Source of the DNA: Actinomycetales bacterium
GTDB taxonomy: Bacteria; Actinomycetota; Actinomycetes; Mycobacteriales; Micromonosporaceae
Length of the DNA stretch: 64,000 bases
Assembly: GCA_002919305.1 (NCBI GenBank)
Contig: PKFB01000015.1
Span: 793 to 64,792 of the forward strand
Direction: 5' to 3'
Position 1 is the first letter of the stretch, and each line of letters begins with the position of its first letter. Positions 11,925 to 59,793 of the stretch are shown here, piece by piece. Under the pieces are notes generated by a model, which ran no database searches, had not been told where the DNA came from, and saw only the letters and a list, made by a program, of their open reading frames with translations. A program made the translations under genes and the position numbers.

Positions 11925-12635
11925 TTACCGCGAAACCGGCGCCACGCCAGACTCTCCACGGTGGACAAGAGAAAACGGCTCCGTTTCCGGTTCGGATACC
12001 GGCTGCGGCGCCTCCGAAGGCCGACGGCTCCGCAGCGGCCGCGCCGGCACGCCACCGGCCACCGTGTACTCCGGCAGGTCCCGAGTGACCACCGCTCCGG
12101 CGCCCACGACGCTGCCCCGCCCGATCCGCACCCCCCGGGTGACGACCACCTTGGTACCCAACCAGCAGTCAGGCCCGATCCGGACCGGACTTTTCACGAT
12201 GCCCTGGTCCTTCATGGGGATCTCAAGGTCCGTGGTCACATGATCAAAGTCGACGATGTAGACGTCGTCAGCGATCATGCAGGCCGCACCGATCTCCACA
12301 TCCAGATAGGCGTTGATGGTGACATCGGACGCCAGCACACACTTGTCCCCCACCCGCAGCGTCCCTTCATGTGCGCGCAGCGCGGTGCCGTCCCCTATGT
12401 GGGTCCACTTGCCCAGAATCAGCCGGCCGTATCCCCGGCGGGCGGTCAACTCCACCCTCTTGCCCAGGAACACCATCCCCTCGGTGACGATGTGGGGCTT
12501 GGTTAACCGGAGCCAGAACAAACGCCAGTACCGGATCAGATACCAGGGGGTGTACGCGCGGTGGCGCAACACCCACCGCACCGACGCCCACGTCAGGTAC
12601 CTGGCTTGCCGAGGATCACGCCGCCGAAACCACAT
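11925..12635 (-). CDS. Left-handed beta-helix (hexapeptide-repeat) acyl/acetyltransferase
   Basis: Hexapeptide repeats: IGDGTALRA, VGDKCVLASDVTI, IGAACMIADDVYI, IGPDCWLGTKVVV, IGRGSVVGAGAVV. Confidence 0.75.
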   Translation of the reverse strand: MWFRRRDPRQARYLTWASVRWVLRHRAYTPWYLIRYWRLFWLRLTKPHIVTEGMVFLGKRVELTARRGYGRLILGKWTHIGDGTALRAHEGTLRVGDKCVLASDVTINAYLDVEIGAACMIADDVYIVDFDHVTTDLEIPMKDQGIVKSPVRIGPDCWLGTKVVVTRGVRIGRGSVVGAGAVVTRDLPEYTVAGGVPARPLRSRRPSEAPQPVSEPETEPFSLVHRGESGVAPVSR

Positions 12636-12644
12636 ATCTGGAGG

Positions 12645-13565
12645 TCATTTAATGCCGGTGATAAGGACGTTGTAGAAGAACTCCTTAGGCACCAGGTGAC
12701 GGAGCACGCGCGCGTCCACCGCCGAGAGGATCTGCCAGGTGCGGTAGGCGAACATCGCCCAGTTCCACCCCAGCTTTTCACGGGGGACCGCCGCTTCAAA
12801 GGTACGCACCGGCCACCCGAACATCGCCGCGGTCAGCTCCTCGGTCGCCACCTTCACCTCGCGGGCGCCCGCCGCTTTGGCGGTCGCGGCGAGCTCGTCG
12901 GGATCAAAGGTGTGCAGGTCCACCACGGCCTCCAACGCCGCGGCCGCGCTGGACTCGTCCAACTCACGTTGCGGACGCCGCCATCCGGTCAGCCCAGGCA
13001 GTCGCGTCAGGTTCGTGGTGGCCCACCAGGTCAGCTGCCCCAGTCGCCGGGCGTACCAGTCACCGATCCGGGTCGGCTCCCCCGCGAACACGAAACGCCC
13101 GCCGGGTTTGAGGACCCGCAGTACCTCACGGAACGCCGCCTCCACATCCGGGATGTGGTGCAGGACCGCGTGCCCGACCACCAGATCCACCGCGTTGTCC
13201 TCAAACGGGATGCGCTCGGCGTCGGCGACCCGTCCGGAGACCTCCAGACCGAGCACCTCGGCGTTCCGCAGCGCCACCTGAACCATCCCCGGCGAGATAT
13301 CGGTGACGAAGCCGCGCTCTACCACCCCCGCCTGCATCAGGTTGAGCAGGAAGAACCCGGTACCGCACCCCACCTCCAGGGCCGTCGGATATGGCCATCC
13401 CTCACGCCCCGCGATGGTGATGAACCGATCCCGGGCGTAGGAGATGCACCGTTCGTCATAGGAGATCGACCACTTGTCCTCGTAGGTGTCGGCCTCCCAG
13501 TCGTGGTACAGCACATTCGCGCGCTTGGGGTCCTCGCGGGCGGCGTTGACCTCGTCCCAACTCAT
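12645..13565 (-). CDS. Class I SAM-dependent methyltransferase
   Basis: Motif I ALEVGCGTGFF, plus LVVGHAVLHHIPD and LKPGGRFVF. ATGA overlap with the upstream enoyl-CoA hydratase stop. Confidence 0.8.
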   Translation of the reverse strand: MSWDEVNAAREDPKRANVLYHDWEADTYEDKWSISYDERCISYARDRFITIAGREGWPYPTALEVGCGTGFFLLNLMQAGVVERGFVTDISPGMVQVALRNAEVLGLEVSGRVADAERIPFEDNAVDLVVGHAVLHHIPDVEAAFREVLRVLKPGGRFVFAGEPTRIGDWYARRLGQLTWWATTNLTRLPGLTGWRRPQRELDESSAAAALEAVVDLHTFDPDELAATAKAAGAREVKVATEELTAAMFGWPVRTFEAAVPREKLGWNWAMFAYRTWQILSAVDARVLRHLVPKEFFYNVLITGIK

Positions 13566-14428
13566 CCAGTTCCCTCCCGCCGCTGATCCGCGGACTCCGG
13601 CTCTGATGCGCCGGCTCCACCGCGGGCACTCCCGAACCGCGGTTTCTCCTTGTTCATGAAGGCACGCATCCCGATCTGCTTGTCCTCGGTGGCGAACAAC
13701 GCCGCGAACAAGTGACTCTCCAGCGCCAGGCCGTTGGCGAGATCAACCTCCAATCCCTGGTCGATCGCGGCCTTGGCGGCCCGGAGCGCGTGGGCTGGCC
13801 CGTCGACGAACCTACGCGCGTACGCGTGAGCCGTCGTGAACACCTCAGCGGCGGGGACCACCTGATCAACCAGGCCGATAGCCAACGCCTCGTCGGCGGT
13901 GACGGTGCGGCCGGTGAAAATCAAATCCTTGGCGCGGGACGGGCCGATCAGACGCGGCAACCGCTGAGTGCCTCCCGCACCAGGTATCACCCCAAGCTTG
14001 ATCTCCGGTTGCCCCAGCTGGGCATCGGCGGCGCAGATCCGGAAGTCGCAGGCGAGCGCCAGTTCACAGCCGCCCCCCAGGGCGTACCCGGTGATCGCTG
14101 CCACCACCGGCTTAGGCAGCTTCGCGACGGTGTCGAAGGCGCTGGAGAGCGCGCTAGCCCGGGCGGCCATCTCGGCGTACCCCATATTCGCCATCTCTTT
14201 GATGTCGGCGCCGGCCGCGAAGACCTTCTCCCCGCCGTATACCACGACCGCCCGGATATCCTCACGTGCGCCCGCCTCGGTCGCGACCGCCCGCAGCTCC
14301 TCCTGCATCTGAATGTTCAGGGCGTTCATCGGGGGTCTGTCCAACCGGATCACTCCGACCCCGTCGGCGACCTCCAACCGCACGAACTCCCCCACCGGCG
14401 ACCTCCCTGTGGCGTCGGGCTGGGACAT
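13562..14428 (-). CDS. Enoyl-CoA hydratase/isomerase (crotonase family)
   Basis: VIRLDRPPMNALN, VVVYGGEKVFAAGADIKEM, AAITGYALGGGCELALACDFR. Confidence 0.9.
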   Translation of the reverse strand: MSQPDATGRSPVGEFVRLEVADGVGVIRLDRPPMNALNIQMQEELRAVATEAGAREDIRAVVVYGGEKVFAAGADIKEMANMGYAEMAARASALSSAFDTVAKLPKPVVAAITGYALGGGCELALACDFRICAADAQLGQPEIKLGVIPGAGGTQRLPRLIGPSRAKDLIFTGRTVTADEALAIGLVDQVVPAAEVFTTAHAYARRFVDGPAHALRAAKAAIDQGLEVDLANGLALESHLFAALFATEDKQIGMRAFMNKEKPRFGSARGGAGASEPESADQRREGTG

Positions 14429-15046: not shown

Positions 15047-15871
15047 TTACCCCAGACGCGCGGCCAAAGCGACGGTGCGGCGGGCCGCCGCCACCATCGC
15101 ACGGTCGGCGAATCGTCCGTCCGGTAACACCACGGTGCCCGACTGACGCAGTTCAGCCTCCTCCAGCGCCGCCAGCAGCTCCGTAGCGCGCTCCACCTCC
15201 GCGGGGGACGGCCGGAAAGCCTCGACAATCACCGGTAGTTGGCGGGGGTGCAGGGCGGCACGGCCGAGGAAACCTAATCGTCTGCCGAGACGGCAGGATT
15301 CGGCCAGTCCGGCTTCATCGGCCACATTGGGGTACACCGACATAGCCGGCGGCCCCAGCTCCGCCGCCGCAGAGGCCACCACGATGCGGCTCCGGGCCCA
15401 GGCCAACCCCGCGTCATCGGTCACGTTGAGGTCAGCGCGCAGATCGGCTTCTCCCAGCCCGATCCCGGTCACCCAGGGGTGCGCCCGAGCGATCTGATAC
15501 GCCGATTCCACCCCGACCGCCGACTCCAACAGACAGTACAGCTCTGTTGGGGTATCAAGCCGCCTGGCGACCTCCACCACGTCACCGGGTGCCTGGACCT
15601 TCGGCAGACGCAGCCCAGACAACCCGGGCGCCCTCGCCACCGCTTCTAAGTCGGCCAGCAGCTCCGGGCCGGCTAACTCACCGACCCGGACCGTCACCGG
15701 GACCGGATGCGGCTGGGTCAGAAACTCCGCCACCGCACGCCTGGCGTACTCCTTACGGGACGGCGCCACCGCATCCTCTAAGTCCAAAATCACCACATCG
15801 GCGCCGCTGTCCACGGCTTTGACGAACCGATCAGGTCGGTCTCCGGGCACGTATAACCAGGTCAGACGCAT
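15047..15871 (-). CDS. CitE-like CoA-ester lyase (HpcH/HpaI aldolase / citrate lyase beta family)
   Basis: RLTWLYVPGDRPDRFVKAVDSGADVVILDLEDAV is the CitE signature. I prefer ATG 15871, which shares one base with the upstream TGA (TGATG), over the TTG at 15874. Confidence 0.85.
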   Translation of the reverse strand: MRLTWLYVPGDRPDRFVKAVDSGADVVILDLEDAVAPSRKEYARRAVAEFLTQPHPVPVTVRVGELAGPELLADLEAVARAPGLSGLRLPKVQAPGDVVEVARRLDTPTELYCLLESAVGVESAYQIARAHPWVTGIGLGEADLRADLNVTDDAGLAWARSRIVVASAAAELGPPAMSVYPNVADEAGLAESCRLGRRLGFLGRAALHPRQLPVIVEAFRPSPAEVERATELLAALEEAELRQSGTVVLPDGRFADRAMVAAARRTVALAARLG

Positions 15872-17064
15872 CAAATCACTCCCCGCTCACGCAGCGCCCC
15901 GATCTCCGCAGCGGTCAGCCCCGCCTCCGTCAGCACCTCATCGGTGTCGGCTCCGTGTGGTCGCCCCGCGAACCGAATGGCCCCCGGGGTCTCCGACAAC
16001 CGGAAGATGAGGTTCTGCATAGTGATCGGCCCCAGCTCGGAGTCATCCACGGTGATCGCTGTCTGCAGCGCGGTGTACTGCGGATCGGCGAGGATGTCCC
16101 GCACGTCGTACACCGGGGCGACCGCGGCCTCGGCCTTCTCGAAGGCCTCCACCACCTCCTGTCTGGTGTGGCGCCCCACCCACTCGGCGACGGCCGCGTC
16201 CAACTCGTCGGCGTGCGCGGCCCGCCCCCGGCCGGTCGCGAACCACGGCTGCTCGATCAGATCCGGCCGCCCCACCAGCTGCATCACCCGTTCGGCGATG
16301 CTTTGCGCGCTGGTTGACACCGCCACCCATTTGCCATCCGCGGTGCGGTAGGTGTTCCGGGGAGCGTTGTTACTGGAGCGGTTCCCCAGACGGGGCTGCA
16401 CGTAGCCGAGCTGGGTGTACCAGGTCAGGTGCGGCCCCAACAGCGCCATGATGGGCTCAATGATGGCCAGGTCAATCACCTGCCCACGTCCGGTCTGCTG
16501 CCGGGCGGCGAGGGCGACCATGACGGCGTACGCGGTCGCCAACCCGGTGATTCCGTCAGCGAGCCCGAATGGCGGCAAGGTGGGTGGCCCGTCCGGCTCC
16601 CCGGTGTAGGCGGCGAAGCCGCTCATCGCCTCCGCGAGGGTGCCGAAGCCGGGGCGACGCGCGTACGGCCCCGTCTGCCCGAAACCGGTAACCCGGGCCA
16701 GCACCAGCCCCGGGTTGTTCGCGCTCAGGGCCTCATACCCCAATCCCCACCGCTCCAAGGTGCCGGGCCGGAAGTTCTCGATGACCACGTCGGCCTGCTC
16801 CGCCAACCGCCGCAGTACCGCCGCACCTTCCTGAGTGGACAGATCGAGGGTCATCGTGCGCTTGTTGCGCCCCAGGACCTTCCCCCACAGACCCACACCG
16901 TTCTTACTGGGACCGTGCCCTCGGGCGGGATCGGGTTTGCGAGGGTGTTCGATCTTCACCACGTCAGCCCCGAAGTCCCCCAGGAAGGCACCAGCCATCG
17001 GCCCAGCGAACAGAGTCGCCAGCTCCAGTACTCGCAACCCCCGCAATGGAGTTGGCGTGCTCAT
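15871..17064 (-). CDS. Family III (CaiB/BaiF) CoA-transferase
   Basis: LRGLRVLELATLFAGPMAGAFLGDFGADVVKIEHP. Start moved to ATG 17064 (GGGGGAGGA upstream), giving an ATGA overlap with the preceding gene's stop. Confidence 0.85.
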   Translation of the reverse strand: MSTPTPLRGLRVLELATLFAGPMAGAFLGDFGADVVKIEHPRKPDPARGHGPSKNGVGLWGKVLGRNKRTMTLDLSTQEGAAVLRRLAEQADVVIENFRPGTLERWGLGYEALSANNPGLVLARVTGFGQTGPYARRPGFGTLAEAMSGFAAYTGEPDGPPTLPPFGLADGITGLATAYAVMVALAARQQTGRGQVIDLAIIEPIMALLGPHLTWYTQLGYVQPRLGNRSSNNAPRNTYRTADGKWVAVSTSAQSIAERVMQLVGRPDLIEQPWFATGRGRAAHADELDAAVAEWVGRHTRQEVVEAFEKAEAAVAPVYDVRDILADPQYTALQTAITVDDSELGPITMQNLIFRLSETPGAIRFAGRPHGADTDEVLTEAGLTAAEIGALRERGVI

Positions 17065-19142
17065 TCCTCCCCCTTTTCTGTCAAATCGACCGCGCATCGG
17101 AACCCGACCCACGCCGAGCGGGTCAGACCGGCACCGAGCAGCAGCAACTTGGCGCTCACTTGAGGTGGCTGCGGGCCGCCGTCGAAGTACCAGTCGGATC
17201 CCTCGGCCCGCCACGCCGCGCCGCCCTTGAGCATCACGAAGCGGGTACGCCCGTCGCTGTGTTCACTCTCGGTCCAGTTCCACACCAGGGGGTGACGTCG
17301 TTGGATGAGTCCCGCCTCGGCCGCCACCTGCCACTCATCCTCAGTGGGCAGGCGCCAGCCGGCCCAGGCGGCGTACGCGCGGGCGTCCGCCAAATCCACG
17401 TAGGTCACCGGCTCGTCTTCGGTCCCGGGCACCGGACGCTCGTCCACCCAGTGGGCCAGAAACCGGTCGGGGTGGCGCGGGCGATAGCCGGTGGCGGTGA
17501 GGAACTCCAGATATTCGGCGTTACTGACCTCTCGCACCCCGATCCCGACGTTCCCCAGCTCCACGGTGCGGATCAGGGTCTCCATGTGATGGAGGCGGGG
17601 TGGCAAAGGCTTCCATTCATTGACATACGGAGCGCCTCCGTACATCCCGGTCTCCCGGGCGCGGTACCGGACCGTCAACTGTCGCCGGCCCGCCGGTATG
17701 GCCACCATCCCGTCCGGAAGCGTGGAGGCGGGGGCCGCCGGGACTGGGCGTCGGATCGCGATCCGATCCGGGAACGTGGCGTCCGGATCCAGCGCTGTCC
17801 CTGTCAGCGCAGGCGGCGGGGTTCCGGGCGGCACCGCGAGAACCGCGGCGATTCCCCGGGCCGGCAGCCGTCCTCCGATGACGGTGTCGGACTCGGACCG
17901 GCATACCTCCAGCTGAGCTCCGATGGCCAGCTCGTACCAGTCCCAGTCCCGTTCCCGACCTGCCCGTGCTGTCTCCCCGGCCGGGTCCTCCTGCTGTCTC
18001 CCCACCCGCAGCCACGGGCCGGACCATTCCTCATCAGCCCGGTTCACGACCGTCCATAAGGTCGCGTCGGCACGCCGCCATCGGGAGGCGTACACCGGTG
18101 CTTCCGCCCCGGGGTGGTCAGCCAGCGGGGTCCACTCCCCCTCGGTGAAGTGGTCGGTGAAGGCCCGCTGCACCGGCAGCATGGCACGCAGCAGCGAACG
18201 ATCCCGCGCGCTCCAGCCCACCCAGGCGCCGAAAACGACGTCCCATATCAAGATCCCGCAGCCGTTGAGCCACGCCGACTGCAGCTCCGCCGTGTGATCA
18301 CGGTGCCACCGTCGGGTGTGGTGCAGCATGTGCCGCCGCTCGAACCATTTGGCCCGCAGCACCCCGGGAACGTCGGAGTCGGCGAACCATTGCGCCCATG
18401 ACATGGGGTGATCGCAGATTCGAGCCAGCGGCAGCCGGGACTCCGATTCCAAAGCGACGCCAGGGCGTGCCGCATCCAGCACATGCCGCAGCGCCGCGCC
18501 GCCCTCTTTGAGGGTGTCCAGGAAGACACCGTCGGCATCCAGCCAGGCGACCAGCTGCCCCAGAGCGGTGAAGTCGTCGACCGGTTCCCGCTGGGTCCCT
18601 CCATCCCACGGGTTGTAGTCGATGAAGACGCGTACTCCACGCCGCCGCAGGGCCGCGACCAAGTCGGGCAGCCCAGGTACCTGCCGGTAGAAGTCGAATT
18701 GGTTACGGTCGTCCAACCCGATGACGGGGTAAGCGTGCCAGAGCACCACCCCGTCCAGACCCCCATAGTCACGCTCAGCGGCGTCGAGGAACGCGTCCGG
18801 CGTGAACTCCCCCCGCTCATGGTCGTACAGCGCCTCATCCCACAACCAGACCAGCGCGACGGCGTAGCAGGACGGAATCCACGCGAACTCCGCACGCCGG
18901 TACAGGGCGTCGTCGTAGCGCAGTCGACGCCGGGCATCGGCGCGCCACGCGGCCAGCCGGCGCCGCCAGGTCGGCCACTGGGCCGGATCATCAGGGGCCG
19001 CGAAGATTTTCGCCTCATCTAGGCCGCTGAGATCATCCGTCGCCGCATCGACGTCTCGTGCGCCCCCGGAGGTGCTCTCCGGCAGCGGAACCTCGGTCGG
19101 CCGGTCAATCGGCCGCGGAATGTAGGGGTTAAATCTGCTCAC
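17061..19142 (-). CDS. Two-domain protein: N-terminal TIM-barrel glycoside-hydrolase-like region fused to a C-terminal FGE-sulfatase (SUMF1) domain
   Basis: 693 aa. N-terminal part: GVRVFIDYNPWD, DADGVFLDTLKEG. C-terminal part: WRLPTEDEWQVAAEAG, LVWNWTE, LKGGAAW, VGFRCAV. GTG start overlaps the kinase stop (GTGA). Confidence 0.7.
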   Translation of the reverse strand: MSRFNPYIPRPIDRPTEVPLPESTSGGARDVDAATDDLSGLDEAKIFAAPDDPAQWPTWRRRLAAWRADARRRLRYDDALYRRAEFAWIPSCYAVALVWLWDEALYDHERGEFTPDAFLDAAERDYGGLDGVVLWHAYPVIGLDDRNQFDFYRQVPGLPDLVAALRRRGVRVFIDYNPWDGGTQREPVDDFTALGQLVAWLDADGVFLDTLKEGGAALRHVLDAARPGVALESESRLPLARICDHPMSWAQWFADSDVPGVLRAKWFERRHMLHHTRRWHRDHTAELQSAWLNGCGILIWDVVFGAWVGWSARDRSLLRAMLPVQRAFTDHFTEGEWTPLADHPGAEAPVYASRWRRADATLWTVVNRADEEWSGPWLRVGRQQEDPAGETARAGRERDWDWYELAIGAQLEVCRSESDTVIGGRLPARGIAAVLAVPPGTPPPALTGTALDPDATFPDRIAIRRPVPAAPASTLPDGMVAIPAGRRQLTVRYRARETGMYGGAPYVNEWKPLPPRLHHMETLIRTVELGNVGIGVREVSNAEYLEFLTATGYRPRHPDRFLAHWVDERPVPGTEDEPVTYVDLADARAYAAWAGWRLPTEDEWQVAAEAGLIQRRHPLVWNWTESEHSDGRTRFVMLKGGAAWRAEGSDWYFDGGPQPPQVSAKLLLLGAGLTRSAWVGFRCAVDLTEKGEE

Positions 19143-20170
19143 AATGTGTCACTCCTGGCCGAAACCTCTCGACGCTGATGAGTGGGGAGGTATGTGGCGG
19201 CGTACAGCTGATCAATGTCGGCGCGGGTAGGCAGGGCGGTGCTGGCGCCGAGACGCTGCGCGCAGCAGGCGCCGGCGGCGCAGGCCCACCGCACCGCGTC
19301 GCGTAGCTCGCGTCCTTCCGCCCACGCCACCGCCAACGCGCCGGTGAAGGCGTCACCGGCCGCCGTGGTATCGACGGGGGTGATACGCGGCGCCGGCACC
19401 CGACAGGCCGCGGTGTCACGCGCCGCGTACACCGCGCCCGCCGCGCCTAAGGTCAGAGCGACTCGGGGCACCTTCGCCAGCAGCGTGTCAAGCAGACCGC
19501 GCACCCGCGTCGGCACCGCCTCCGCTCCGTCCGCGTCTGAACCTGCTCCGTCTGAACCCGCTCCGTCCTGTCCGGCCGCCCCGTGGGCCAGGATCGCCGC
19601 CTCCCCCTCGTTGACCACCAGCAGGTCGACCAGTTCAAGCAGGGCGTCGTTCAACGGACGGGCCGGCGCCGCGTTGAGGATCACCCGGGTCCCACCCTCC
19701 CGGGCCGCCGCCAACGCGCTGTGGACGCCGCTGACCGGGATCTCCAACTGACACAGCAGCACATCGGCGGCGGCGATGGCCGTCCGGTCCGGCTCCGTTA
19801 ACCGTTCCAGAGTGGCGTTCGCACCGGCCGCGACCAGAATGCTGTTCTCGCCACCATCATCGACCATGATCAACGCGACGCCTGAGGGACCGGCCGCCGT
19901 CCGCAGCTGTGTGATGTCCACGCCGGCCTGTTGAAGCGTGAGGCGCAGTTCAGGACCGAAGCTGTCCTCACCTACGGCACCGATGAAGGACGTAGCGGCG
20001 CCCGCCCGCGCCGCAGCCACCGCCTGATTGGCGCCTTTTCCTCCGGGTACGGTGGTGAAGTCGCGGCCCAGCACCGTCTCCCCGGGTCGCGGCAGCCGCG
20101 CCGCCCGCGCCACCAGGTCCATGTTGACGCTGCCGACGACCACGACCCGGGCTTGGCTCACGCGCTGCAT
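19139..20170 (-). CDS. PfkB-family carbohydrate kinase, ribokinase-like
   Basis: VVVVGSVNMDLV...GETVLGRDFTTVPGGKGANQAVAAA and the C-terminal DTTAAGDAFTGAL. Start moved to ATG 20170 (MQRVSQARVVVVGS). Confidence 0.85.
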   Translation of the reverse strand: MQRVSQARVVVVGSVNMDLVARAARLPRPGETVLGRDFTTVPGGKGANQAVAAARAGAATSFIGAVGEDSFGPELRLTLQQAGVDITQLRTAAGPSGVALIMVDDGGENSILVAAGANATLERLTEPDRTAIAAADVLLCQLEIPVSGVHSALAAAREGGTRVILNAAPARPLNDALLELVDLLVVNEGEAAILAHGAAGQDGAGSDGAGSDADGAEAVPTRVRGLLDTLLAKVPRVALTLGAAGAVYAARDTAACRVPAPRITPVDTTAAGDAFTGALAVAWAEGRELRDAVRWACAAGACCAQRLGASTALPTRADIDQLYAATYLPTHQRREVSARSDTL

Positions 20171-20360
20171 ACAGCTCTCCCTTCCGCACTCCCAGCCCAG
20201 TTCCCCCTGAGCCTTGGGCGGCGACGGCCGTGGAGCCTTCCCATCTCCCCACGGCCCGCCCGGCCACCCACCCGACGACCATCTCCTCGTCACCGGCCGA
20301 CTCCCCGCAGGCACCGCCCCTGACCGGAGCCGCTCCGGTTTGATCACCAAGCCGACATCG

Positions 20361-21716
20361 TCAGGATCCGACCAGCGCCACGGTTCGGGCGGCCAGAGCG
20401 TCAAAGCCGATGCCGTCGAATCCGACGAGGCTGGTGTGCAACCGGTTGGCCAACGGGGCGGTCCACTCCGTCGGGAGCGCCTGCGCCCCGACCAGCCCGC
20501 CCACCACGGAGCCCACCGTCGCTCCGTTGGAGTCGGTGTCCCAGCCGCCGGAGACCACCGCGCAGATGGACCTGACCGGATCCCCCTGGCCCCACGCCAA
20601 GGCGGCGGTCACCAGGGCCGCGTTGTTGATCACGTGCACCCAGTGCAGGTCCCCGTAGCGTTCATAGAGCGCATCCACCACGGCTTCGAAGTCCGTGGCA
20701 CCCACCGCCGCCCGACGCGCGAACCGCACCGCCGACGCCAGTCGACTGTCAGGCGGCAGCAGCGCCGCGGCCGCGTCCAGCACGCTGTCCACATCGGAGG
20801 CCACCAGGGCTGCTGAGGCCAGCCCGGCGGCGTACATGGCTCCGTAGATGCCGTTACGTACATGGCTGATCCGGGCGTCCCGCCACGCCAGCTCCGCCGC
20901 CGCGGCGGGGTTACCGGGGTTGACCCACCCGTAGACATCGGTGCGGATCTGCGCCCCGATCCATTCCCGGAACGGGTTGCGGGTGGTGGCGGTGGCCGGT
21001 GGCGTCAGCCCCAGCAGCAGATTCCGGTACGCCACACGTTCAGCGGTGAAAACCCGACCGCCGGGCAGCCACTCCAGCCAACAGGTGGCGACGTCCTCAC
21101 TGGTGAAATCCCGTCCCCGGGTCTCCAGCAGCCGCAGCGCCAGCAGCGCGAAGTTGAGGTCGTCGTCCTCGGGCATGCCGTTGATGTTTTCGGCCAGGCT
21201 GGTCGCGCGGCTGCGCCGGTTCCACGGCCACCGGGCCGCCACCTCAGGAGGCAGCCCGACCTCGGTGAAGTATCCCGACAGGGGCCAACGCCCCGTCGCC
21301 TCCAGGATTTCGCGGATCCCCTCCCGAGGGATCTTCTCCACCGGTTTGCCGAGCAGGCAGCCGACCGCCCGCCACAGCCAAGCCCCGTGGATCCTGTCAG
21401 CCAGATCCGGCCCCGGCCCAGGCAGCCCGACATCAGCCGGCCATCCCGCGCACAGCGCCTCAAGATCATCGGGTTCCCGATCGGACCCTGGGGTCGGTAG
21501 GGCGTCCAACTCGTCCAGCAACTCGGCGGCGAGGGTACGCAGGTGCGCGGGCGCGGGATCGACCGAGGCGCCGCCGACGGGTGGGTGAACGGAGCCACCC
21601 GCCGCCCGCCACCGGGCCTCGATCCGGTCAACGGCGTCCACGGAGCGCCCTACCTGACGGCTGGTGACCAGCTCGTGCCGGAGCAAATCCTCCGGCTGTA
21701 CCCAGGTCAGTCTCAT
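20361..21716 (-). CDS. ADP-ribosylglycohydrolase-family protein with an N-terminal extension of about 105 aa and a degenerate first metal motif
   Basis: C-terminal GGWDTDSNGATVGSVVG motif. The N-terminal motif reads AVGCLLGKPVE rather than GDALG. Start at ATG 21716 (MRLTWVQPEDL, GGAGG upstream) overlaps the upstream stop (ATGA). Confidence 0.75.
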   Translation of the reverse strand: MRLTWVQPEDLLRHELVTSRQVGRSVDAVDRIEARWRAAGGSVHPPVGGASVDPAPAHLRTLAAELLDELDALPTPGSDREPDDLEALCAGWPADVGLPGPGPDLADRIHGAWLWRAVGCLLGKPVEKIPREGIREILEATGRWPLSGYFTEVGLPPEVAARWPWNRRSRATSLAENINGMPEDDDLNFALLALRLLETRGRDFTSEDVATCWLEWLPGGRVFTAERVAYRNLLLGLTPPATATTRNPFREWIGAQIRTDVYGWVNPGNPAAAAELAWRDARISHVRNGIYGAMYAAGLASAALVASDVDSVLDAAAALLPPDSRLASAVRFARRAAVGATDFEAVVDALYERYGDLHWVHVINNAALVTAALAWGQGDPVRSICAVVSGGWDTDSNGATVGSVVGGLVGAQALPTEWTAPLANRLHTSLVGFDGIGFDALAARTVALVGS

Positions 21717-22894
21717 CCCGCCTCCTTCGCGGAGTGACTCCCCTCCGCGACCCCTTGGAGCAGGGCGTCGAATCGTTCGGCCCGGACACGCCACCGTTGG
21801 GTGTCCCGGGCGTACACCTCCCGCGCCACCTCGGCTAAGGCCTGGGCCAGGCCGGTCAGGTCCAACCGGCTGGCCCGGGTCACCTGCTCTGTCCACTCGG
21901 CCGGCACTGCGGCGGAGCCACCCAACGCCCCAGCCATGGCCCCCACCATCGTGGCGATGGAGTCGGCGTCTCGGCCGTAGTTGGTGGCGCCCAGCAACGC
22001 CTCCCGGGCATTACCCCGCGCCACCACCAACATCCCCAACGCGATCGGGAGTTCTTCGATGGAGTGCAGCCGGCTGGGGCGCCGCGCCCCCAGTCCGGGA
22101 TTTCGGTAGTCCTCGCCCACCGTGTCGAACGGAGCCATGGCGGCCCGCAGCGGGGCCAGCGCCTCCCGCCAGTCGGTGTACCGCTGTGCGGTGGAGCAGA
22201 CCGCTTCGATCGCCGAACGGGTGCCGTCCTTGGCCAGTTCCAGGCAGGCCGCCACCACATCGTCGACGGTCGCGGCGGCAGTCATCGCCGCCGCGACACC
22301 AGCCGCGAAAACTCCGGCCGCCTCCCGTCCGTAACTGGACTGGTGGGCGCCGGCGATCTCAATCGCCTCGGCGTAGGCCCCCGCCGGATTACCGGCGTTG
22401 ACCACGCCGACCGGGGCCATATACATCGCCGCCCCGCAGTTGACGATGTTGCCGACCCCGGCCTCCCGCGGATCGGCGTGGCCGTGCATCAAGCGCCCCA
22501 CCATGAACCGCTCGGCCAACGCCAGGCGGTGAAAGGCCACCGTTTCGCGCTCCAGGTCCGGCACGAAGGTGGGGCGCCCGACCAAATCCGGAATCAGATG
22601 CTCGGCGATGTCATAGGCATCCAAGTGGTCGCGTTTCCGCGTATAGACCCGGATCAGCGCGTGGGTGAGCAGCGTGTCATCGGTGATATGACCGTCACCC
22701 TTGTGATACGGCGCCGTCGGACGGGCGGTCTGCCAGTCGGGGTGGAACGGTGGCGCGGGGCCGTCCACCCACCCGGCGTACCGCTGCCGGATCTGATCGG
22801 GTAACGCTCCCTCGGTGGCGCCGCCTAAAGCGTCACCGACAGCCGCGCCGGTCAAACATCCAACGATCTTGTCTTCCAGAAGGGTCACCGTCAC
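21713..22894 (-). CDS. ADP-ribosylglycohydrolase-family protein (canonical motifs)
   Basis: IVGCLTGAAVGDALGGATEG and NYGRDADSIATMVGAMAGALGG. GTG start overlaps the binding-protein stop (GTGA). Confidence 0.85.
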   Translation of the reverse strand: MTVTLLEDKIVGCLTGAAVGDALGGATEGALPDQIRQRYAGWVDGPAPPFHPDWQTARPTAPYHKGDGHITDDTLLTHALIRVYTRKRDHLDAYDIAEHLIPDLVGRPTFVPDLERETVAFHRLALAERFMVGRLMHGHADPREAGVGNIVNCGAAMYMAPVGVVNAGNPAGAYAEAIEIAGAHQSSYGREAAGVFAAGVAAAMTAAATVDDVVAACLELAKDGTRSAIEAVCSTAQRYTDWREALAPLRAAMAPFDTVGEDYRNPGLGARRPSRLHSIEELPIALGMLVVARGNAREALLGATNYGRDADSIATMVGAMAGALGGSAAVPAEWTEQVTRASRLDLTGLAQALAEVAREVYARDTQRWRVRAERFDALLQGVAEGSHSAKEAG

Positions 22895-24171
22895 CGCAAC
22901 ACCTGCTCGCCGCCTTCAATCAACCGTTGTCCCAGCTCCTCCAGGGAGATCGCGTTCGCGAAGTACTCCTGGAACGCCGGGGTGGCGATTCTGGTCCGCC
23001 ACTCCGCCAGCTCCACCACCCGCTGGAACGGAGCCAGCACCAGGTTGTCGACGCTGGCCACCGCGATATCCCAGCCGTTCTCCCCGCCGGTTTCGGCCAG
23101 CACCTGCTCACCAGCGCTCCGTCCGGTGGGGACCAGCCAGTCCCCCATCGCCAGCCGGGCCATGTTCTCCGGAGCCAGGAAGAAATCGATGAACTGCATC
23201 GCCTCTTCGGGGTGCTCGGACTGCGCCGCGATCGACAACGTCTGCGGGTTCCCCGCCTGCTCCTGGCTGTCACCCAACAGCGGCGGCAGCGTCACCCACT
23301 GGAACCCCTCGGGGGCCTGCTCCACCATCTGCTGACGCAGGTAGATGGAGCCGGGCAGCATCGCGTACTGGCCGGCGAAGAAACCAGGCAACGGATCCGT
23401 CCCACCCATGCTGAGCGCGTCGGGATCCGCCGACTGGTCCCGGTACACCATGTCGTGGATCCGCTGAGGCACCTCAGCCTCGGCGTCCCCGAAGACCACC
23501 TCGGGCCGGTCCCCGTCGAATGAGAAGTACTCCCCGCCGAAGTTCAGGCTGAGATTGAGGATCCGGTTGACCGGCTGACGCAGCGCCCAGGCCACCCCGT
23601 ACCGCTCCGAGGTGGTCAAAGCCCGGGCGTGCTCAGCGAACTCATCCCAGGTCCACGGGTCGTCCACCGTGGGGATCGGGATGTTCGCCTCCTCCAACAG
23701 GGCCCGGTTGGCGATCACGACCTGCGACTCCAGCAGGAACGGCACCCCGAAGATCGCCCCGTCAGGGGTGGTGACGGTCTCCCAGATCGCGTCGCCGATC
23801 TCCTCACGCAGCGCGTCGGTCAGCAGATCCGACAGGTCCGCCAGGTAGCCGTCCCGGGCAAACTGGCTGGCCAGCGCCGCCTCGTAGTGGATGATGTCCG
23901 GCGCGTCTCCGCCTTCGAACCCGGTCAACAGCTGGTCATGCACCGAATCCCAGCTGCCCTGGATGTACTCGATCTGGATCTCGGGGTGCTCCCGGTTCCA
24001 CTGCTCGACCAGCTCCTCATTGGCCTGCACCGAGGCTTCCTGCCAGGCCAGGCTTAAAAACTGCAGCGTGACCGGACCGTCACCGGACCCCTCGTCGTCG
24101 CCGCCACAGGCGGCCAGTGACGTCAGGGCTAAACCAGCCACAGCGGTGGCGGCCGCGAATCTGCGTAACAT
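22891..24171 (-). CDS. ABC sugar transporter, extracellular solute-binding lipoprotein (family 1)
   Basis: Start moved to ATG 24171. MLRRFAAATAVAGLALTSLAACGG gives a lipobox, with GAGGAGGAA upstream. The remainder looks like an SBP_bac_1 sugar binder. Confidence 0.8.
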   Translation of the reverse strand: MLRRFAAATAVAGLALTSLAACGGDDEGSGDGPVTLQFLSLAWQEASVQANEELVEQWNREHPEIQIEYIQGSWDSVHDQLLTGFEGGDAPDIIHYEAALASQFARDGYLADLSDLLTDALREEIGDAIWETVTTPDGAIFGVPFLLESQVVIANRALLEEANIPIPTVDDPWTWDEFAEHARALTTSERYGVAWALRQPVNRILNLSLNFGGEYFSFDGDRPEVVFGDAEAEVPQRIHDMVYRDQSADPDALSMGGTDPLPGFFAGQYAMLPGSIYLRQQMVEQAPEGFQWVTLPPLLGDSQEQAGNPQTLSIAAQSEHPEEAMQFIDFFLAPENMARLAMGDWLVPTGRSAGEQVLAETGGENGWDIAVASVDNLVLAPFQRVVELAEWRTRIATPAFQEYFANAISLEELGQRLIEGGEQVLR

Positions 24172-24328
24172 CGCTTCCTCCTCAGGTGGGGGACTAGGTT
24201 GGGGGACTGAGGTGCGGACGCGCCGCACAGACGCGTCCAAGGCTGTGGATGCCCACATGGAGGGCGGCTGGGGGAGCCACCGACCCGACGGGGCCCACAA
24301 CAGACCAGATGGGGGTACGCGGAACCGA

Positions 24329-25165
24329 TCAGCCTTTGACCGCCCCGGCCAATGCGCCGGAGGTCAGGCGCCGTTGCAGGAACCCGAAGAACACCAAACT
24401 GGGAATCGTGGCCAGCAGCGAACCCGCCGCCAGCGGCCCCAGCCGTGTGATGCCCTCAATGCCAACGAAGCGCGCCAACGCCAACGGCAACGTCGCCAAC
24501 TCCGGTTGCCGCAACAGCACCAAGGCGAAGAAGAACTCATTCCACGCCGAGATGAAGGCGAACAGCGCCGCCGCGACGACCCCCGGCACCAGCAGGGGCG
24601 CCACCACCAGCCGCAGCGTCTGCAATCGGGAGGCTCCGTCGACCGCCGCCGCCTCCTCCACTTCCCGGGGGACGGAGCGGACGAAGCTCTGCAGCATCCA
24701 CAACGCAAAGGGCAGCGACCAGACCACGTACACCAGCAGCAGGCCGAACAGACTGTTGGTCAGCTCCACCTGCCGCAGGATCATGAACATTGGGATCACC
24801 AGCAGGATGAACGGGAACAGCTGGGACAGCAGAATCCATCCTGTCGCGGCGGTGTTGAGCCGAGTCCGGTAACGCGCCAGGGCGTACGCGGCCGGCAACG
24901 CGATCACCACCGTCGCCACCGCCGAGCCCAACGCGACGATCAGGCTATTGAACGCCGCACGTACCAGATCCTGCTCCGTAAAGGCCGAGATGTAGTTGTC
25001 CAGGGTGGGGTGGTGCGGGATGAGCGTGGGGTGGATCTCCACCATCTCCCGAGGCTGCTTAAACGATGTGGACAGCATCCACAGCAACGGGAACGACAAG
25101 AACGCCAGGTAGCCCACGAGCACCAGGTACTGCAGCCCACGGACCAGGGGATGGGTCTTGATCAT
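24329..25165 (-). CDS. ABC sugar transporter permease (MalG/BPD_transp_1 type)
   Basis: 278 aa, 6 TM, with EAA loop VEEAAAVDGASRLQTLRLVVAPLLVPG. Confidence 0.9.
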   Translation of the reverse strand: MIKTHPLVRGLQYLVLVGYLAFLSFPLLWMLSTSFKQPREMVEIHPTLIPHHPTLDNYISAFTEQDLVRAAFNSLIVALGSAVATVVIALPAAYALARYRTRLNTAATGWILLSQLFPFILLVIPMFMILRQVELTNSLFGLLLVYVVWSLPFALWMLQSFVRSVPREVEEAAAVDGASRLQTLRLVVAPLLVPGVVAAALFAFISAWNEFFFALVLLRQPELATLPLALARFVGIEGITRLGPLAAGSLLATIPSLVFFGFLQRRLTSGALAGAVKG

Positions 25166-25232: not shown

Positions 25233-26159
25233 TCATGTCGCCTCCCGCATCCGCCGACGCAGGTACAGGCTGAGCAGGGCGACGATGATCAGCACCATCG
25301 CGCCTCCCATCGCGGCGGCGTAGCCGAAGTTGCCGTACCGGAAGGCCTCCTCGTACGCGAAGAGCATCGGCAGCATGGTTCGGCCACCAGGCCCACCGGC
25401 CGTCAACACATAGACCAGGCCGAAGGAATTGAAGTTCCAAATGAAATCCAAAGACGTGATCGCGATGATCACGGGGCGCAGCTGCGGCACCGTGATGTGC
25501 CAGAAGCGCCGCCACGCGCTGGCTCCGTCCATCGCGGCCGCTTCGTGCAGCTCGTTGGGGATCCCCTGCAGCCCGGCCAGCAGCACGATGGTGGTCTGCG
25601 GCATCCCCGCCCAGACCCCCACCACGATCACGGCGGGCAACGCTGTGGAGAAGTCACCGAGCCAGTTGGTGCTCAGCCCGTCCAGGCCGATCCGGTAGAG
25701 CAATTCGTTCAGCAGACCGGCGTCAGGGTGGTAGACGAGCTGCCACATGATGCCGACGATGACCGGCGGCATCGCCCACGGCACCAGCGCGAGGGTCCGG
25801 GCGAGCCAACGGAGACGGAGCGGCTGTTGCAGCAGCAACGCCAGCCCGAAGGCGAGCACGAACTGAATACCGGTGACCGCGAAGGCCCAGATCAGACCGA
25901 TGCGGAAGGACTCCCAAAACAGGGTGTCCTCCAGCAACTGTCGGTAGTTGTCCAGCCCCACGAAGTGGGTGTCCTGGTTCAGTCCGGCCCGGGCGTCGGT
26001 AAAGCCCAAATACAGCCCGTTGAGCAGAGGGATGACCGATAACAGCACCACCGGCAGCAGGGCCGGGATGACCAACAGGTACGCGTAGCGGGTGTCCCGC
26101 GTCGCTAATGCGTTCCGACGCCGCTCCTCCACGGCGCGGTGCTCCACGACCACGCTCAT
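25233..26159 (-). CDS. ABC sugar transporter permease (MalF type)
   Basis: 308 aa with EAA loop LHEAAAMDGASAWRRFWHITVPQLRP. The ATG overlaps the LacI stop (ATGA). Confidence 0.9.
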   Translation of the reverse strand: MSVVVEHRAVEERRRNALATRDTRYAYLLVIPALLPVVLLSVIPLLNGLYLGFTDARAGLNQDTHFVGLDNYRQLLEDTLFWESFRIGLIWAFAVTGIQFVLAFGLALLLQQPLRLRWLARTLALVPWAMPPVIVGIMWQLVYHPDAGLLNELLYRIGLDGLSTNWLGDFSTALPAVIVVGVWAGMPQTTIVLLAGLQGIPNELHEAAAMDGASAWRRFWHITVPQLRPVIIAITSLDFIWNFNSFGLVYVLTAGGPGGRTMLPMLFAYEEAFRYGNFGYAAAMGGAMVLIIVALLSLYLRRRMREAT

Positions 26160-27184
26160 GGCCGCACCGCCCGACTGGAGGCCCGGATCACCAGACGAGG
26201 CGGGACGGTGACCCTCGCCGGTGGTCGATCCGGGTCGACCAAACGGTCCAAAAGCAGCTGCGCAGCGGTCTGTCCCCGCTCTTCTGAACCCAGCGACACA
26301 CTGGACAGCTGCGGGAACGACATCCGCGCCAGGTCGGTGTCGTCCATGCCGACCAGCGCGATCTCCTCCGGCACCCGGATACCGCGGCTGAGGAGGGTGT
26401 GCAGCGCCCCCACCGCGATCAGGTCGTTGGCGCAGAAGATCGCGTCCGGGCGTACCCGGTCCAACAGCCGCTCCGTTGCCCGTCGACCGTCCTCATATCG
26501 GAAGTCCCCGATCTCGATCAGCGCATCGTCGGCGGGGAGGCCGAGCCGGTCCCGGGCAGCGAGGTACCCGGCCTGCCGCGCCGCTCCAGGAACGGTGTCC
26601 AGCGGCCCGTTGATCAACGCGATGCGGCGCCGGCCACTCTCCACCAGGTGGCTCAGGGCGAGCCCGACACCGCTGTGCGAGTCGGTCCGGACGTTGTCGA
26701 CCTCAACGTCGTCGGGCAACGCACCGACGACCACCACCGGCCCGGCGGCCCGGCTCAGGGCCTCCAGATGCGCGTCGGTCACCCGGATGGGGACGAGCAC
26801 CAACCCGTCGACGTAACGCTTGGCCAGCCCGTCCAACAGTTCGACCTCGCCGTCGGGGTCGGCTCCGGTGGCGTGGACCACCAGTCGGTATCCGGCCCGC
26901 CGGACGACGGTCTCCATGGCCCGCATCATCGCCACATAGACCGGGTTGCCGATGTCTTCGACAGCCAGCGCCAACATGTCGGTGCGGCGGGACCGGAGGG
27001 ACCGGGCCACGGCGTTGGGCACGTACCCCACCTTGGCGGCGGCGGCGCGGACCCGTTGCTCGGTCTCTGGGCTGGCTCCCAGTCCATTGAGGACACGGGA
27101 CGCCGAAGCGATCGAGACTCCCGCCAGTTTGGCCACGGTATGCACCGTGGGAGCGCGGTTTCCCTGTAAACGTTTACGCGCCAC
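26156..27184 (-). CDS. LacI/GalR-family transcriptional regulator
   Basis: N-terminal HTH TVHTVAKLAGVSIASASRVLNG...VGYVPNAVARSLRS followed by a periplasmic-binding-protein-like fold. GTG start. Confidence 0.9.
   Translation of the reverse strand: MARKRLQGNRAPTVHTVAKLAGVSIASASRVLNGLGASPETEQRVRAAAAKVGYVPNAVARSLRSRRTDMLALAVEDIGNPVYVAMMRAMETVVRRAGYRLVVHATGADPDGEVELLDGLAKRYVDGLVLVPIRVTDAHLEALSRAAGPVVVVGALPDDVEVDNVRTDSHSGVGLALSHLVESGRRRIALINGPLDTVPGAARQAGYLAARDRLGLPADDALIEIGDFRYEDGRRATERLLDRVRPDAIFCANDLIAVGALHTLLSRGIRVPEEIALVGMDDTDLARMSFPQLSSVSLGSEERGQTAAQLLLDRLVDPDRPPARVTVPPRLVIRASSRAVRP
27165..27178. promoter_or_regulatory. LacI-type operator half of a pair: TGTAAACGTTTACG (13/14 palindromic), inside the first codons of the regulator gene
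   Basis: Read directly. Together with its flanks, CCCTGTAAACGTTTAC (27162-27177) is the exact reverse complement of 27210-27225. Confidence 0.55.
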
Positions 27185-53330: not shown

Positions 53331-53455
53331 GATGCGGACACTCGGCGTCTGCCCCTCACCGGCAATAGCAACAGATGTGGGCCCTGGTGTGCCCGTGGTA
53401 CGCCGACCACTGGCTCCGGCAGGGTGTCCACCGGTGCAACGTGTGAGGTGAAATC

Positions 53456-59634: not shown

Positions 59635-59793
59635 GTCCAGCGCCACGCTGTGGTGCGATCTACCTTGTGTTTCGTTGCGCTGTTTAGGAAAAGTCAGCGC
59701 AGTAAAGCCTGTCGCCATACCCCGTGGCCCGGCTTTGAGCGATGCTGAGCGCAGCATCCCGGTTGATGATCCGGTTGATGAAGGGAGCCCACG

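Follow-up and report, generated by a model that had tools for sequence, protein, structure and literature searches.

What is the task of a formylglycine-generating enzyme (FGE) fold in a genome that codes for no sulfatase? The question is raised by a gene on contig PKFB01000015.1 of an Actinomycetales bacterium (assembly GCA_002919305.1), lying in a stretch of 64,000 nucleotides that was analysed as a whole (hereafter, the window) and coding for a 693-residue protein in which a C-terminal domain of the FGE-sulfatase (SUMF1) family is fused to an N-terminal barrel resembling those of glycosidases. Known roles of the FGE fold are those of a copper oxidase, of a domain of sulfoxide synthases and of a scaffold in secretion machines; forms devoid of the catalytic cysteines are also known, namely SUMF2, PvdO, PorK/GldK, the immunity proteins of type VI secretion systems (T6SS) and the variable proteins of diversity-generating retroelements. 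The answer that best agrees with the data presented below, to which a probability of about 0.6 may be assigned, is that the fusion acts on carbohydrates in the cytoplasm, as a two-domain enzyme of a family not yet described, in which a barrel of the glycoside hydrolase family 13 (GH13) type would be catalytic and the FGE fold would serve as a non-redox recognition module.

The FGE-like domain and its missing cysteine pair

The only Pfam family found in the fusion is PF03781 (FGE-sulfatase), which matches residues 520–628 (E 2.3e-18; 67.2 bits against a cut-off of 23.3) over no more than positions 25–138 of the 255 of the profile; the extent of the domain, ~475–690, was set from secondary structure and conservation. 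When a profile of the C-terminal 194–214 residues was compared with the PDB, the FGEs of Thermomonospora, Streptomyces and man came out best (E 1e-16 to 1e-14), followed in order by SUMF2, CalU17, EgtB, OvsA and SenA, ToxD, and PorK (E ~1e-4), while PvdO was matched with the whole-protein profile only (E 0.008). The FGE fold, which the first-pass annotation had read from short motifs, is borne out by both searches. All the motifs quoted in that annotation, those of the FGE fold (WRLPTEDEWQVAAEAG, LVWNWTE, LKGGAAW and VGFRCAV) and those of the barrel (VFIDYNPWD and DADGVFLDTLKEG), are contained in the translation of the open reading frame (ORF). The alignments with FGEs of known structure also show that the domain is shorter than a true FGE, an insert of ~40 residues being missing.

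Genuine FGEs carry their Cys pair in a loop with the motif GGSxxCxxxxC. The whole fusion has five cysteines (92, 243, 295, 414 and 683), of which C683, belonging to the structural GFRC motif, is the only one in the FGE-like domain; none is found between LKGGAAW and VGFRCAV, where the stretch replacing the catalytic loop reads AAWRAEGSDWYFDGGPQPPQVSAKLLLLGAGLTRSAW. The loss of the pair, already suspected from the single sequence, holds for the family: in the 190 relatives whose flanking motifs could be recognised, the place of the FGE catalytic loop has no conserved Cys pair, some Cys being present in the stretch in 54 of them and a CxxxxC, at a different offset, in one (P0198). Moreover, no His or Cys of the FGE-like domain is conserved family-wide among 61 two-domain members. 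The exceptional P0198 (L084:6095-8824, GCA_000399785.1) is a distant secreted relative with the sequence WYAPCGPQPCSTH, in which CxxxxC stands where the query has DGGPQPP; the two cysteines probably form a disulfide and not a copper site, and the neighbouring genes code for a ROK kinase, a SIS-domain protein and a protein resembling GH5/GH35.

As for iron-dependent chemistry, the best NCBIfam matches of the domain are SenA (E 7e-13) and EgtB (E 2e-10), both far under the respective equivalog cut-offs (48.8 against 420 bits and 40.3 against 360 bits), and neither DinB nor any other Pfam domain is detected in residues 1–475. An EgtB-like iron enzyme is accordingly rejected on these scores and on the absence of DinB, and the public name "nonheme iron enzyme" is unsupported. 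Because the Cu-binding Cys pair is lost and no iron-binding DinB partner is present, redox chemistry is not expected of this domain. The first-pass annotation had likened it to EgtB or PvdO; the repurposing of the fold and the likeness to PvdO stand, but EgtB is an imperfect analogy, since its iron site lies in the DinB domain that is absent here, and SUMF2/pFGE, PvdO and PorK/GldK are closer Cys-less analogues.

The genome searched is a 4.94-Mb actinobacterial assembly, 96.9% complete. No PF00884 sulfatase is found either in the window, as previously stated, or in this whole genome, the same search giving matches in 10 of 14 control genomes; a sulfatase partner that the window might have left out is thus encoded nowhere in the assembly. 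The only PF03781 match of the genome is the fusion itself. Because the Cys pair is lost, the PF03781 match is the sole one and no PF00884 sulfatase accompanies it, the domain is not a formylglycine generator, and its identification as a genuine FGE is rejected. With a single PF03781 match the genome apparently lacks EgtB as well, which seemed notable for an actinobacterium.

Conservation within the FGE-like domain was analysed in the same 61 two-domain members, which are 28–61% identical to the query; 58 positions of the whole protein reach a conservation of 90% or more, all 58 with the consensus residue in the query. The core positions of the fold are kept (A587, Y590, W593, RLP, E603, W604, W621, GG and GFR), together with residues specific to this family (E497, D630, W651, Y652 and R675); W651, Y652, R675 and R682 are at least 92% conserved and E497 is at 95%. 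Among actinobacterial orthologues the mean column identity is 71% for the FGE-like domain against 64% for the barrel, and the most invariant stretches of the former, R494–H518 and G648–G656, are the only internal segments of the structural model with a predicted local distance difference test (pLDDT) value below 50, a pattern that would be expected of loops becoming ordered on a ligand or on a partner surface.

The N-terminal barrel

The AlphaFold2 (AF2) models are confident both for the whole protein (alignment of 25 sequences; pLDDT 82.6, predicted template-modelling score (pTM) 0.86) and for residues 1–440 (18 sequences; pLDDT 83.9, pTM 0.88), and display eight β/α units between ~94 and ~340 followed by a β-sandwich at 350–437. 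In a Foldseek search of the PDB with the barrel-only model the top 50 matches are almost entirely GH13 enzymes (probability 1.0, E down to 3e-12, TMq 0.44–0.54, 10–15% identity), including neopullulanase, branching enzymes, maltogenic amylases, trehalose synthase and α-glucosidase, plus a few GH30 and GH36 entries; the alignments to the GH13 enzymes, ~500 columns long, cover barrel and sandwich, and the whole-protein model matches GH29, GH129 and GH27 in addition. The glycoside-hydrolase-like TIM barrel proposed from the sequence is supported in this way.

The barrel residues conserved in the family comprise D102, D130, D144, R146, D180, D204, D209, E234, R278 and N293, together with the aromatics W135, Y138, W179, W249 and W300; as far as can be judged from the alignment, this acidic and aromatic set resembles that of a catalytic pocket which binds sugar on the C-terminal side of the strands. 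When the barrel profile was compared by hhalign with an alignment of 11 GH13 paralogues of the same genome, the register obtained, at 19% probability, placed VFIDYN on GH13 region I, DGVFLD209 on region II (DGFRVD, containing the nucleophile) and E234 on the Glu of region III. The likely nucleophile would thus be D209, where β4 ends, and the likely acid/base would be E234, where β5 ends. The genome holds at least 11 GH13 paralogues, two of which, one trehalose-synthase-like and one branching-enzyme-like, lie in the same window at ~53440–55240 and ~59780–61990, both on the plus strand.

A fixed pairing of domains in a large family

The association of the two domains is the fixed architecture of a large and widespread family, and not a local oddity. 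More than 2,400 of the 8,000 candidate proteins tested are homologues at E ≤ 1e-3, the best full-length ones being 57–65% identical to the query, and in a species-representative genome collection the fusion is encoded by 527 prokaryotic species, mostly actinobacteria; a barrel-only profile run against 1.8 billion cluster representatives retrieved 1,980 proteins (E ≤ 1e-3), of which 483 reach E ≤ 1e-30. An FGE-sulfatase domain directly follows the barrel in all 20 longer relatives scanned with Pfam and, according to hidden Markov models built for the purpose, in 64 of the 82 representatives with a complete barrel. Most of the remaining 18 have too few residues past the barrel to accommodate it, and in three longer ones of metagenomic origin (P0134, P0141 and P0226) the domain begins (RVRECGFY, IPGGRFVMRVRA) and then runs into an out-of-frame tail rich in Arg and Pro, indicative of a frameshift. 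The members without an FGE-like domain, which might have proved the domains separable, were therefore rejected as such proof; because these apparent exceptions are short or frameshifted, barrel and FGE-like domain behave as one unit, and from the sequences the pairing looks obligate. Stand-alone relatives of the FGE-like domain were likewise sought and rejected: the top 120 short matches, 51–71% identical, come mostly from contigs of ~1 kb or resemble split genes, and are fragments of the same fusion.

Further domains are occasionally added to this unit. P0126 and P0129, of metagenomic/actinobacterial origin, are natural fusions of an N-terminal PfkB kinase with barrel and FGE-like domain, and may be taken as Rosetta-stone evidence that the kinase receives the product of the fusion enzyme; in P0122 a PF00756 esterase is fused C-terminally to the unit (residues ~690–972), without signal peptide. 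Both kinds of fusion would tie the barrel/FGE enzyme functionally to the steps concerned. Other accessory modules are a dockerin with CHB_HEX_C and Fn3_assoc (P0187), a cohesin with FIVAR (P0250), Ig domains (P0161) and a GH2_N-like sugar-binding domain (P0209). No sulfatase is found in the neighbourhoods examined around the distant secreted relatives, whose varied carbohydrate contexts were rejected as a clue to the substrate.

The operon and its distribution

In a tblastn comparison of the proteins of the window with the 80 loci that match best, out of the 527 species with the fusion, a constant order of ten genes was observed: LacI regulator, two permeases, binding protein, two genes of the ADP-ribosylglycohydrolase family (ARH1 and ARH2), ribokinase-like kinase, fusion, family III coenzyme A (CoA)-transferase and CitE-type lyase. 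Each of them is present in 74–78 of the 80 loci, Micromonosporaceae, Catenulispora and Phytoactinopolyspora included, and the catabolic-operon context assigned to the gene at first reading is upheld by gene content and by synteny in about 77 of the 80. A metagenome-assembled genome of Limnocylindria (Chloroflexota) is represented by a short contig of 7.9 kb only (L071), on which kinase, fusion, CoA-transferase and lyase are found. Both ARH proteins are only distantly related to the characterised ARH3, DraG and MJ1187, and the kinase scores 279 bits against the TIGR02152 ribokinase equivalog, the cut-off of which is 300.

A gene for a PF00756 esterase is inserted between fusion and CoA-transferase in 32 of 79 loci (for example, L003:~11950-14090), the Micromonospora esterase bearing a signal peptide and a repeat-rich tail; CoA-transferase and lyase are kept even in the loci with this insertion. 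The esterase insertions, like the fusion in P0122, hint that the substrate of the operon is acylated in some lineages. The operon of the window is itself without the esterase gene.

The fusion was found in none of 400 evenly sampled genomes of the phylum; within the family it occurs in 7 of 36 further genera, and it is missing from all 24 genomes that were taken from other families in the order. Such a patchy distribution is typically shown by accessory catabolic operons.

Of the systems described so far, the ribose utilisation (Rus) loci of Bacteroidetes come nearest; they contain a regulator, a transporter, one or more ribokinases, variable glycoside hydrolases, ADP-ribosylglycohydrolases and esterases, and the release of ribose from unknown conjugates has been proposed as their task (Glowacki et al., bioRxiv 10.1101/574913). 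The gene content of the present operon, as established by Pfam, NCBIfam and synteny, includes the regulator, transporter, ribokinase and hydrolases of a Rus-like locus, and the mixture of ribokinase, ADP-ribosylglycohydrolases, esterases and unassigned glycosidases is common to both; the differences are that transport relies on SusC/D in Bacteroidetes and on an ATP-binding cassette (ABC) importer in the Gram-positive setting considered here, that the genes of the latter form an invariable set, with the barrel/FGE fusion and the CoA-transferase/CitE pair among them, and that its link to ribose is a prediction from gene content.

A proposed function and its alternatives

In the most plausible scheme, the catalytic part of the fusion would be the barrel with its β-sandwich, a distant glycosidase of the α-amylase superfamily (GH13 type), whereas the FGE-like domain would most likely be a built-in module recognising the substrate or completing the active site, by means of the face that binds the peptide in real FGEs and that now bears GSxWYxDGG, R675 and D630. 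The operon, under the control of LacI, probably breaks down a ribose-containing compound: a ribose-containing glycoside, probably acylated in some lineages, would be imported by the oligosaccharide-type ABC transporter and dismantled by the fusion enzyme and by the two hydrolases of the ADP-ribosylglycohydrolase family, the released pentose would be phosphorylated by the ribokinase, and the organic-acid moiety would be disposed of by the CoA-transferase and the CitE-type lyase. Acylated ribosides, O-acyl-ADP-ribose derivatives, ribose-containing capsule fragments, bacillithiol-like sugar-malate conjugates and D-arabinofuranosides may all be imagined as substrates, none of them being favoured. 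A bolder version, tentative and less likely than not, is that the fusion founds a new family of glycoside hydrolases (or phosphorylases) whose active site would be a composite one, the aglycone or +1 subsite being recognised by the FGE fold, and that the operon is an undescribed pathway in which ARH-type enzymes, serving as catabolic ribosidases, would attack a ribose glycoside that is imported and partly acylated, the acid being burned via CoA-transferase and CitE lyase.

Several observations weigh against a GH13-type enzyme of sugar catabolism. The barrel has no Pfam match even at E 10 (25 members), none in NCBIfam and none among PDB sequences, with either the single sequence or the profile; a well-characterised family for the N-terminal half, which would have called for another interpretation, was accordingly not encountered in any of the three collections. 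The comparison with GH13 by hhalign reaches only the probability given above (E 1.2e-3), the third catalytic Asp of GH13 (region IV) aligns to T284 and has no counterpart, and a TM score of ~0.5 denotes a shared fold, not a shared mechanism. In addition, the neighbours of the distant secreted relatives are heterogeneous (GH2, GH9, ROK kinase with SIS, DeoC, peptidases) and show no consistent theme, and what would connect the sugar genes with the CoA-transferase/lyase pair is synteny only.

Among the alternatives, the one that survives best, though it is unlikely, keeps the FGE-like domain as a binding module and the barrel as catalyst, the reaction on the imported compound being that of a glycoside phosphorylase, a transglycosylase or an isomerase instead of a hydrolysis. 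Non-hydrolases of the GH13 type are well known, such as sucrose or glucosylglycerate phosphorylases, trehalose synthase and branching enzymes; trehalose synthases and branching enzymes do stand beside hydrolases among the Foldseek matches, the D209/E234 pair would serve such enzymes too, and a cytoplasmic location with an adjacent kinase would equally suit an energy-saving phosphorolysis. Secreted relatives with dockerin or cohesin modules, however, are more typical of hydrolases, phosphorylases being intracellular.

Somewhat less probable is an FGE-like domain holding the key chemistry, a cysteine-independent cleavage or formation of a C–N, C–S or ester bond in the aglycone, with a barrel that mainly holds the sugar. 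It would account for the stronger conservation of the FGE-like domain (71% against 64%) and for its charged residues invariant in the actinobacterial clade (R494, R496, E497, K511, R516, H518, E627, H628, D630, R632, R634, D654 and R675), and the fold does support diverse chemistry in EgtB, OvoA and SenA. Yet the polar residues invariant in the whole family reduce to E497, D586, E603, D630, R597, R675 and R682, mostly core-fold residues common to all FGE-fold proteins; a conserved His or Cys for a metal is missing, the metal site of the EgtB type belongs to a separate DinB domain that is absent here, and the characterised Cys-less FGE folds, SUMF2 and PorK/GldK, are not known to be catalytic (cf. 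PMC12421860).

Still further down stands a non-enzymatic component, either a binding or scaffold protein or a pseudo-enzyme organising the ARH enzymes and the kinase. The barrel without family assignment and the repeated reuse of the FGE fold as a scaffold (the PorK ring, the T6SS immunity proteins) speak for it, but the acidic residues with which β4 and β5 end, like the aromatics at the barrel mouth (W135, Y138, W179, W249 and W300), are near-invariant down to 28% identity, and the secreted multi-modular relatives, with dockerin and modules resembling carbohydrate-binding ones, look like enzymes; such a role is very improbable. Finally, a genuine FGE, or another maturase for a non-canonical target protein, finds no support beyond the name of the Pfam family and the public labels of such proteins ("formylglycine-generating enzyme family protein" or "SUMF1/EgtB/PvdO family nonheme iron enzyme"), and is effectively refuted by the single Cys outside the catalytic loop, by the lack of a genomic sulfatase and by the sugar-catabolism operon.

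Comparison with known systems

Cys-less FGE folds and GH13-like barrels are each known; their fixed combination appears to be undescribed. The domain shares with the aerobic FGEs (human SUMF1 and the enzymes of Thermomonospora curvata and Streptomyces coelicolor; PDB 1y1e, 6s07, 2q17) the PF03781 fold and the motifs EVTN..Y..F, DARAYAAWAG.RLPTE.EW, W.WT, KGGS and GFRCA, but it differs from them in lacking the Cu-binding Cys pair, in its size (~215 against ~280 residues), in its position behind a glycosidase-like barrel and in the absence of a sulfatase substrate from the genome. SUMF2/pFGE (PDB 1y4j), PvdO (5hha), PorK/GldK (9mzu) and CalU17 (7ml6) have similarly kept the fold and lost the catalytic cysteines, SUMF2 being the only PDB entry with an alignment through the W.WT...GFRCA segment; they are, however, proteins that stand alone or lipoproteins that form rings, in neither case joined to a barrel, and the GSxWYxDGGPQ loop is specific to the fusion family. 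In the sulfoxide and selenoxide synthases EgtB, OvoA and SenA an FGE-fold domain binds the substrate of a non-FGE reaction, as is proposed for the fusion, but the place of their iron-binding DinB_2 domain (3-His site) is taken in the fusion by the (β/α)8 barrel.

With GH13 enzymes (neopullulanase 1j0h, branching enzyme 8zqa, trehalose synthase 3zo9) the fusion has in common the succession of barrel and β-sandwich, the Asp past β4 in DG(V/F)(F/R)xD and the Glu past β5; its barrel is, on the other hand, only 10–15% identical to theirs (TM ~0.5), lacks the third catalytic Asp, domain B and any match to the Pfam Alpha-amylase family, and is followed by the FGE-like domain. The kinase fusions P0126 and P0129 recall the α-galactosidase-sucrose kinase AgaSK (PDB 2yfn), in which a glycosidase barrel is joined to the kinase taking its product, although AgaSK belongs to GH36, has a kinase of another type and carries no FGE-like domain. 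A literature search covering the fusion itself, FGE-like domains in glycosidases, operons with ARH, ribokinase and CoA-transferase, and ribofuranosidases returned the Rus preprint as the only analogue; neither a description of the fixed barrel/FGE combination nor a solved structure nor a Pfam model of the barrel was found.

If the proposed function is correct, the FGE fold would gain, by its constant association with a barrel of the glycosidase type, a further role, that of a built-in recognition module of a carbohydrate-active enzyme. The public names "formylglycine-generating enzyme" and "nonheme iron enzyme" are misleading for thousands of such proteins. The family, its barrel being absent from Pfam and PDB, is a candidate for a new CAZy family; the operon, for its part, points to a ribose-containing soil nutrient and would give enzymes of the ADP-ribosylglycohydrolase family a plain catabolic job.

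Gene organisation

The coordinates of the gene, its domains and its neighbours are collected in Table 1. Those given for the gene by the first-pass annotation are exact; the strand, which it had left unstated, is the minus strand, the plus-strand translation of the same interval yielding stops only. The translational coupling that it had claimed with the kinase upstream and the CoA-transferase downstream is supported by a GTGA and an ATGA overlap, both preceded by a ribosome-binding site of the GGAG type, in a window with a GC content of 64–70%. No signal peptide was detected in the fusion, a hydrophobic N-terminal stretch being absent on reading of the sequence.

Table 1. Features of the barrel/FGE fusion gene and of the surrounding operon (positions in the window)
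Feature	Position	Strand	Basis and remarks
Whole gene, barrel plus FGE-like fusion, 693 aa	17061–19142	-	GTG start at 19142, TGA stop 17061–17063; ORF listing and translation
Overlap GTGA, kinase stop/fusion start	19139–19142	-	Sequence read
Overlap ATGA, fusion stop/CoA-transferase start	17061–17064	-	Sequence read
N-terminal ~90 residues	18873–19142	-	Conserved leader (NPYxPRPID, LDEAKIFAAP) and long helix packing on barrel; alignment, AF2 (helix 53–74)
(β/α)8 barrel, residues ~91–345	18108–18872	-	AF2, Foldseek; strands 94–99, 131–135, 171–176, 205–208, 230–234, 247–251, 272–276, 296–300
D209, candidate catalytic nucleophile, end of β4 in DGVFLD	18516–18518	-	98% conserved in 61 members; hhalign to GH13 region II Asp at 19% probability
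E234, candidate general acid/base, end of β5 in ALESES	18441–18443	-	97% conserved in 61 members; hhalign to GH13 region III Glu
β-sandwich, residues ~346–440	17823–18107	-	AF2 strands 350–437; placed like domain C of α-amylases
Linker, residues ~441–474	17721–17822	-	Poorly conserved, variable length; alignment columns 480–560 gap-rich
FGE/SUMF1-fold domain, residues ~475–690, compact, ~215 aa	17073–17720	-	PF03781; single cysteine C683
Loop R494-x-RETG...EWKPLPPRLH518, start of FGE-like domain	17592–17660	-	Invariant alignment columns; pLDDT <50 at 497–517
Segment KGGAAW...GSDWYFDGGPQPP...RSAWVGFR in place of FGE Cu-binding CxxxxC loop	17097–17228	-	No Cys; family signature GSxWYxDGGPQ...RS..GFRC
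LacI regulator	26156–27184	-	Synteny, 74–77/80 loci for importer/LacI block
Sugar-type ABC importer, permease	25233–26159	-	
Sugar-type ABC importer, permease	24329–25165	-	
Sugar-type ABC importer, binding protein	22891–24300	-	SBP_bac_1, E 6e-40
ARH1, ADP-ribosylglycohydrolase family, in tandem with ARH2	21713–22894	-	PF03747, E 6e-49 and 3e-45 for the two ARH genes; 77–78/80 loci
ARH2, ADP-ribosylglycohydrolase family	20361–~21716	-	PF03747, see ARH1; 77–78/80 loci
PfkB/ribokinase-like kinase, upstream of fusion	19139–20404	-	PF00294, E 2e-59
Family III CoA-transferase, downstream	15871–17064	-	PF02515, E 4e-123; 78/80 loci
CitE/HpcH-type acyl-CoA lyase, downstream	15047–15874	-	PF03328, E 4e-29; 78/80 loci

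Two gene starts of the operon deserve a remark. The ORF of ARH2 (20361–21896, minus strand) has an N-terminal extension of ~100 residues, the Pfam ARH match beginning at residue 171. The kinase ORF, as listed, starts with a TTG at 20404 and overlaps ARH2 by 44 nt; judging from its homologues and from the fused forms, its true start is probably an ATG near 20170 (MQRVSQARVVVVG), which leaves past the stop of ARH2 at 20361 a gap of ~190 nt, the only sizeable one of the operon.

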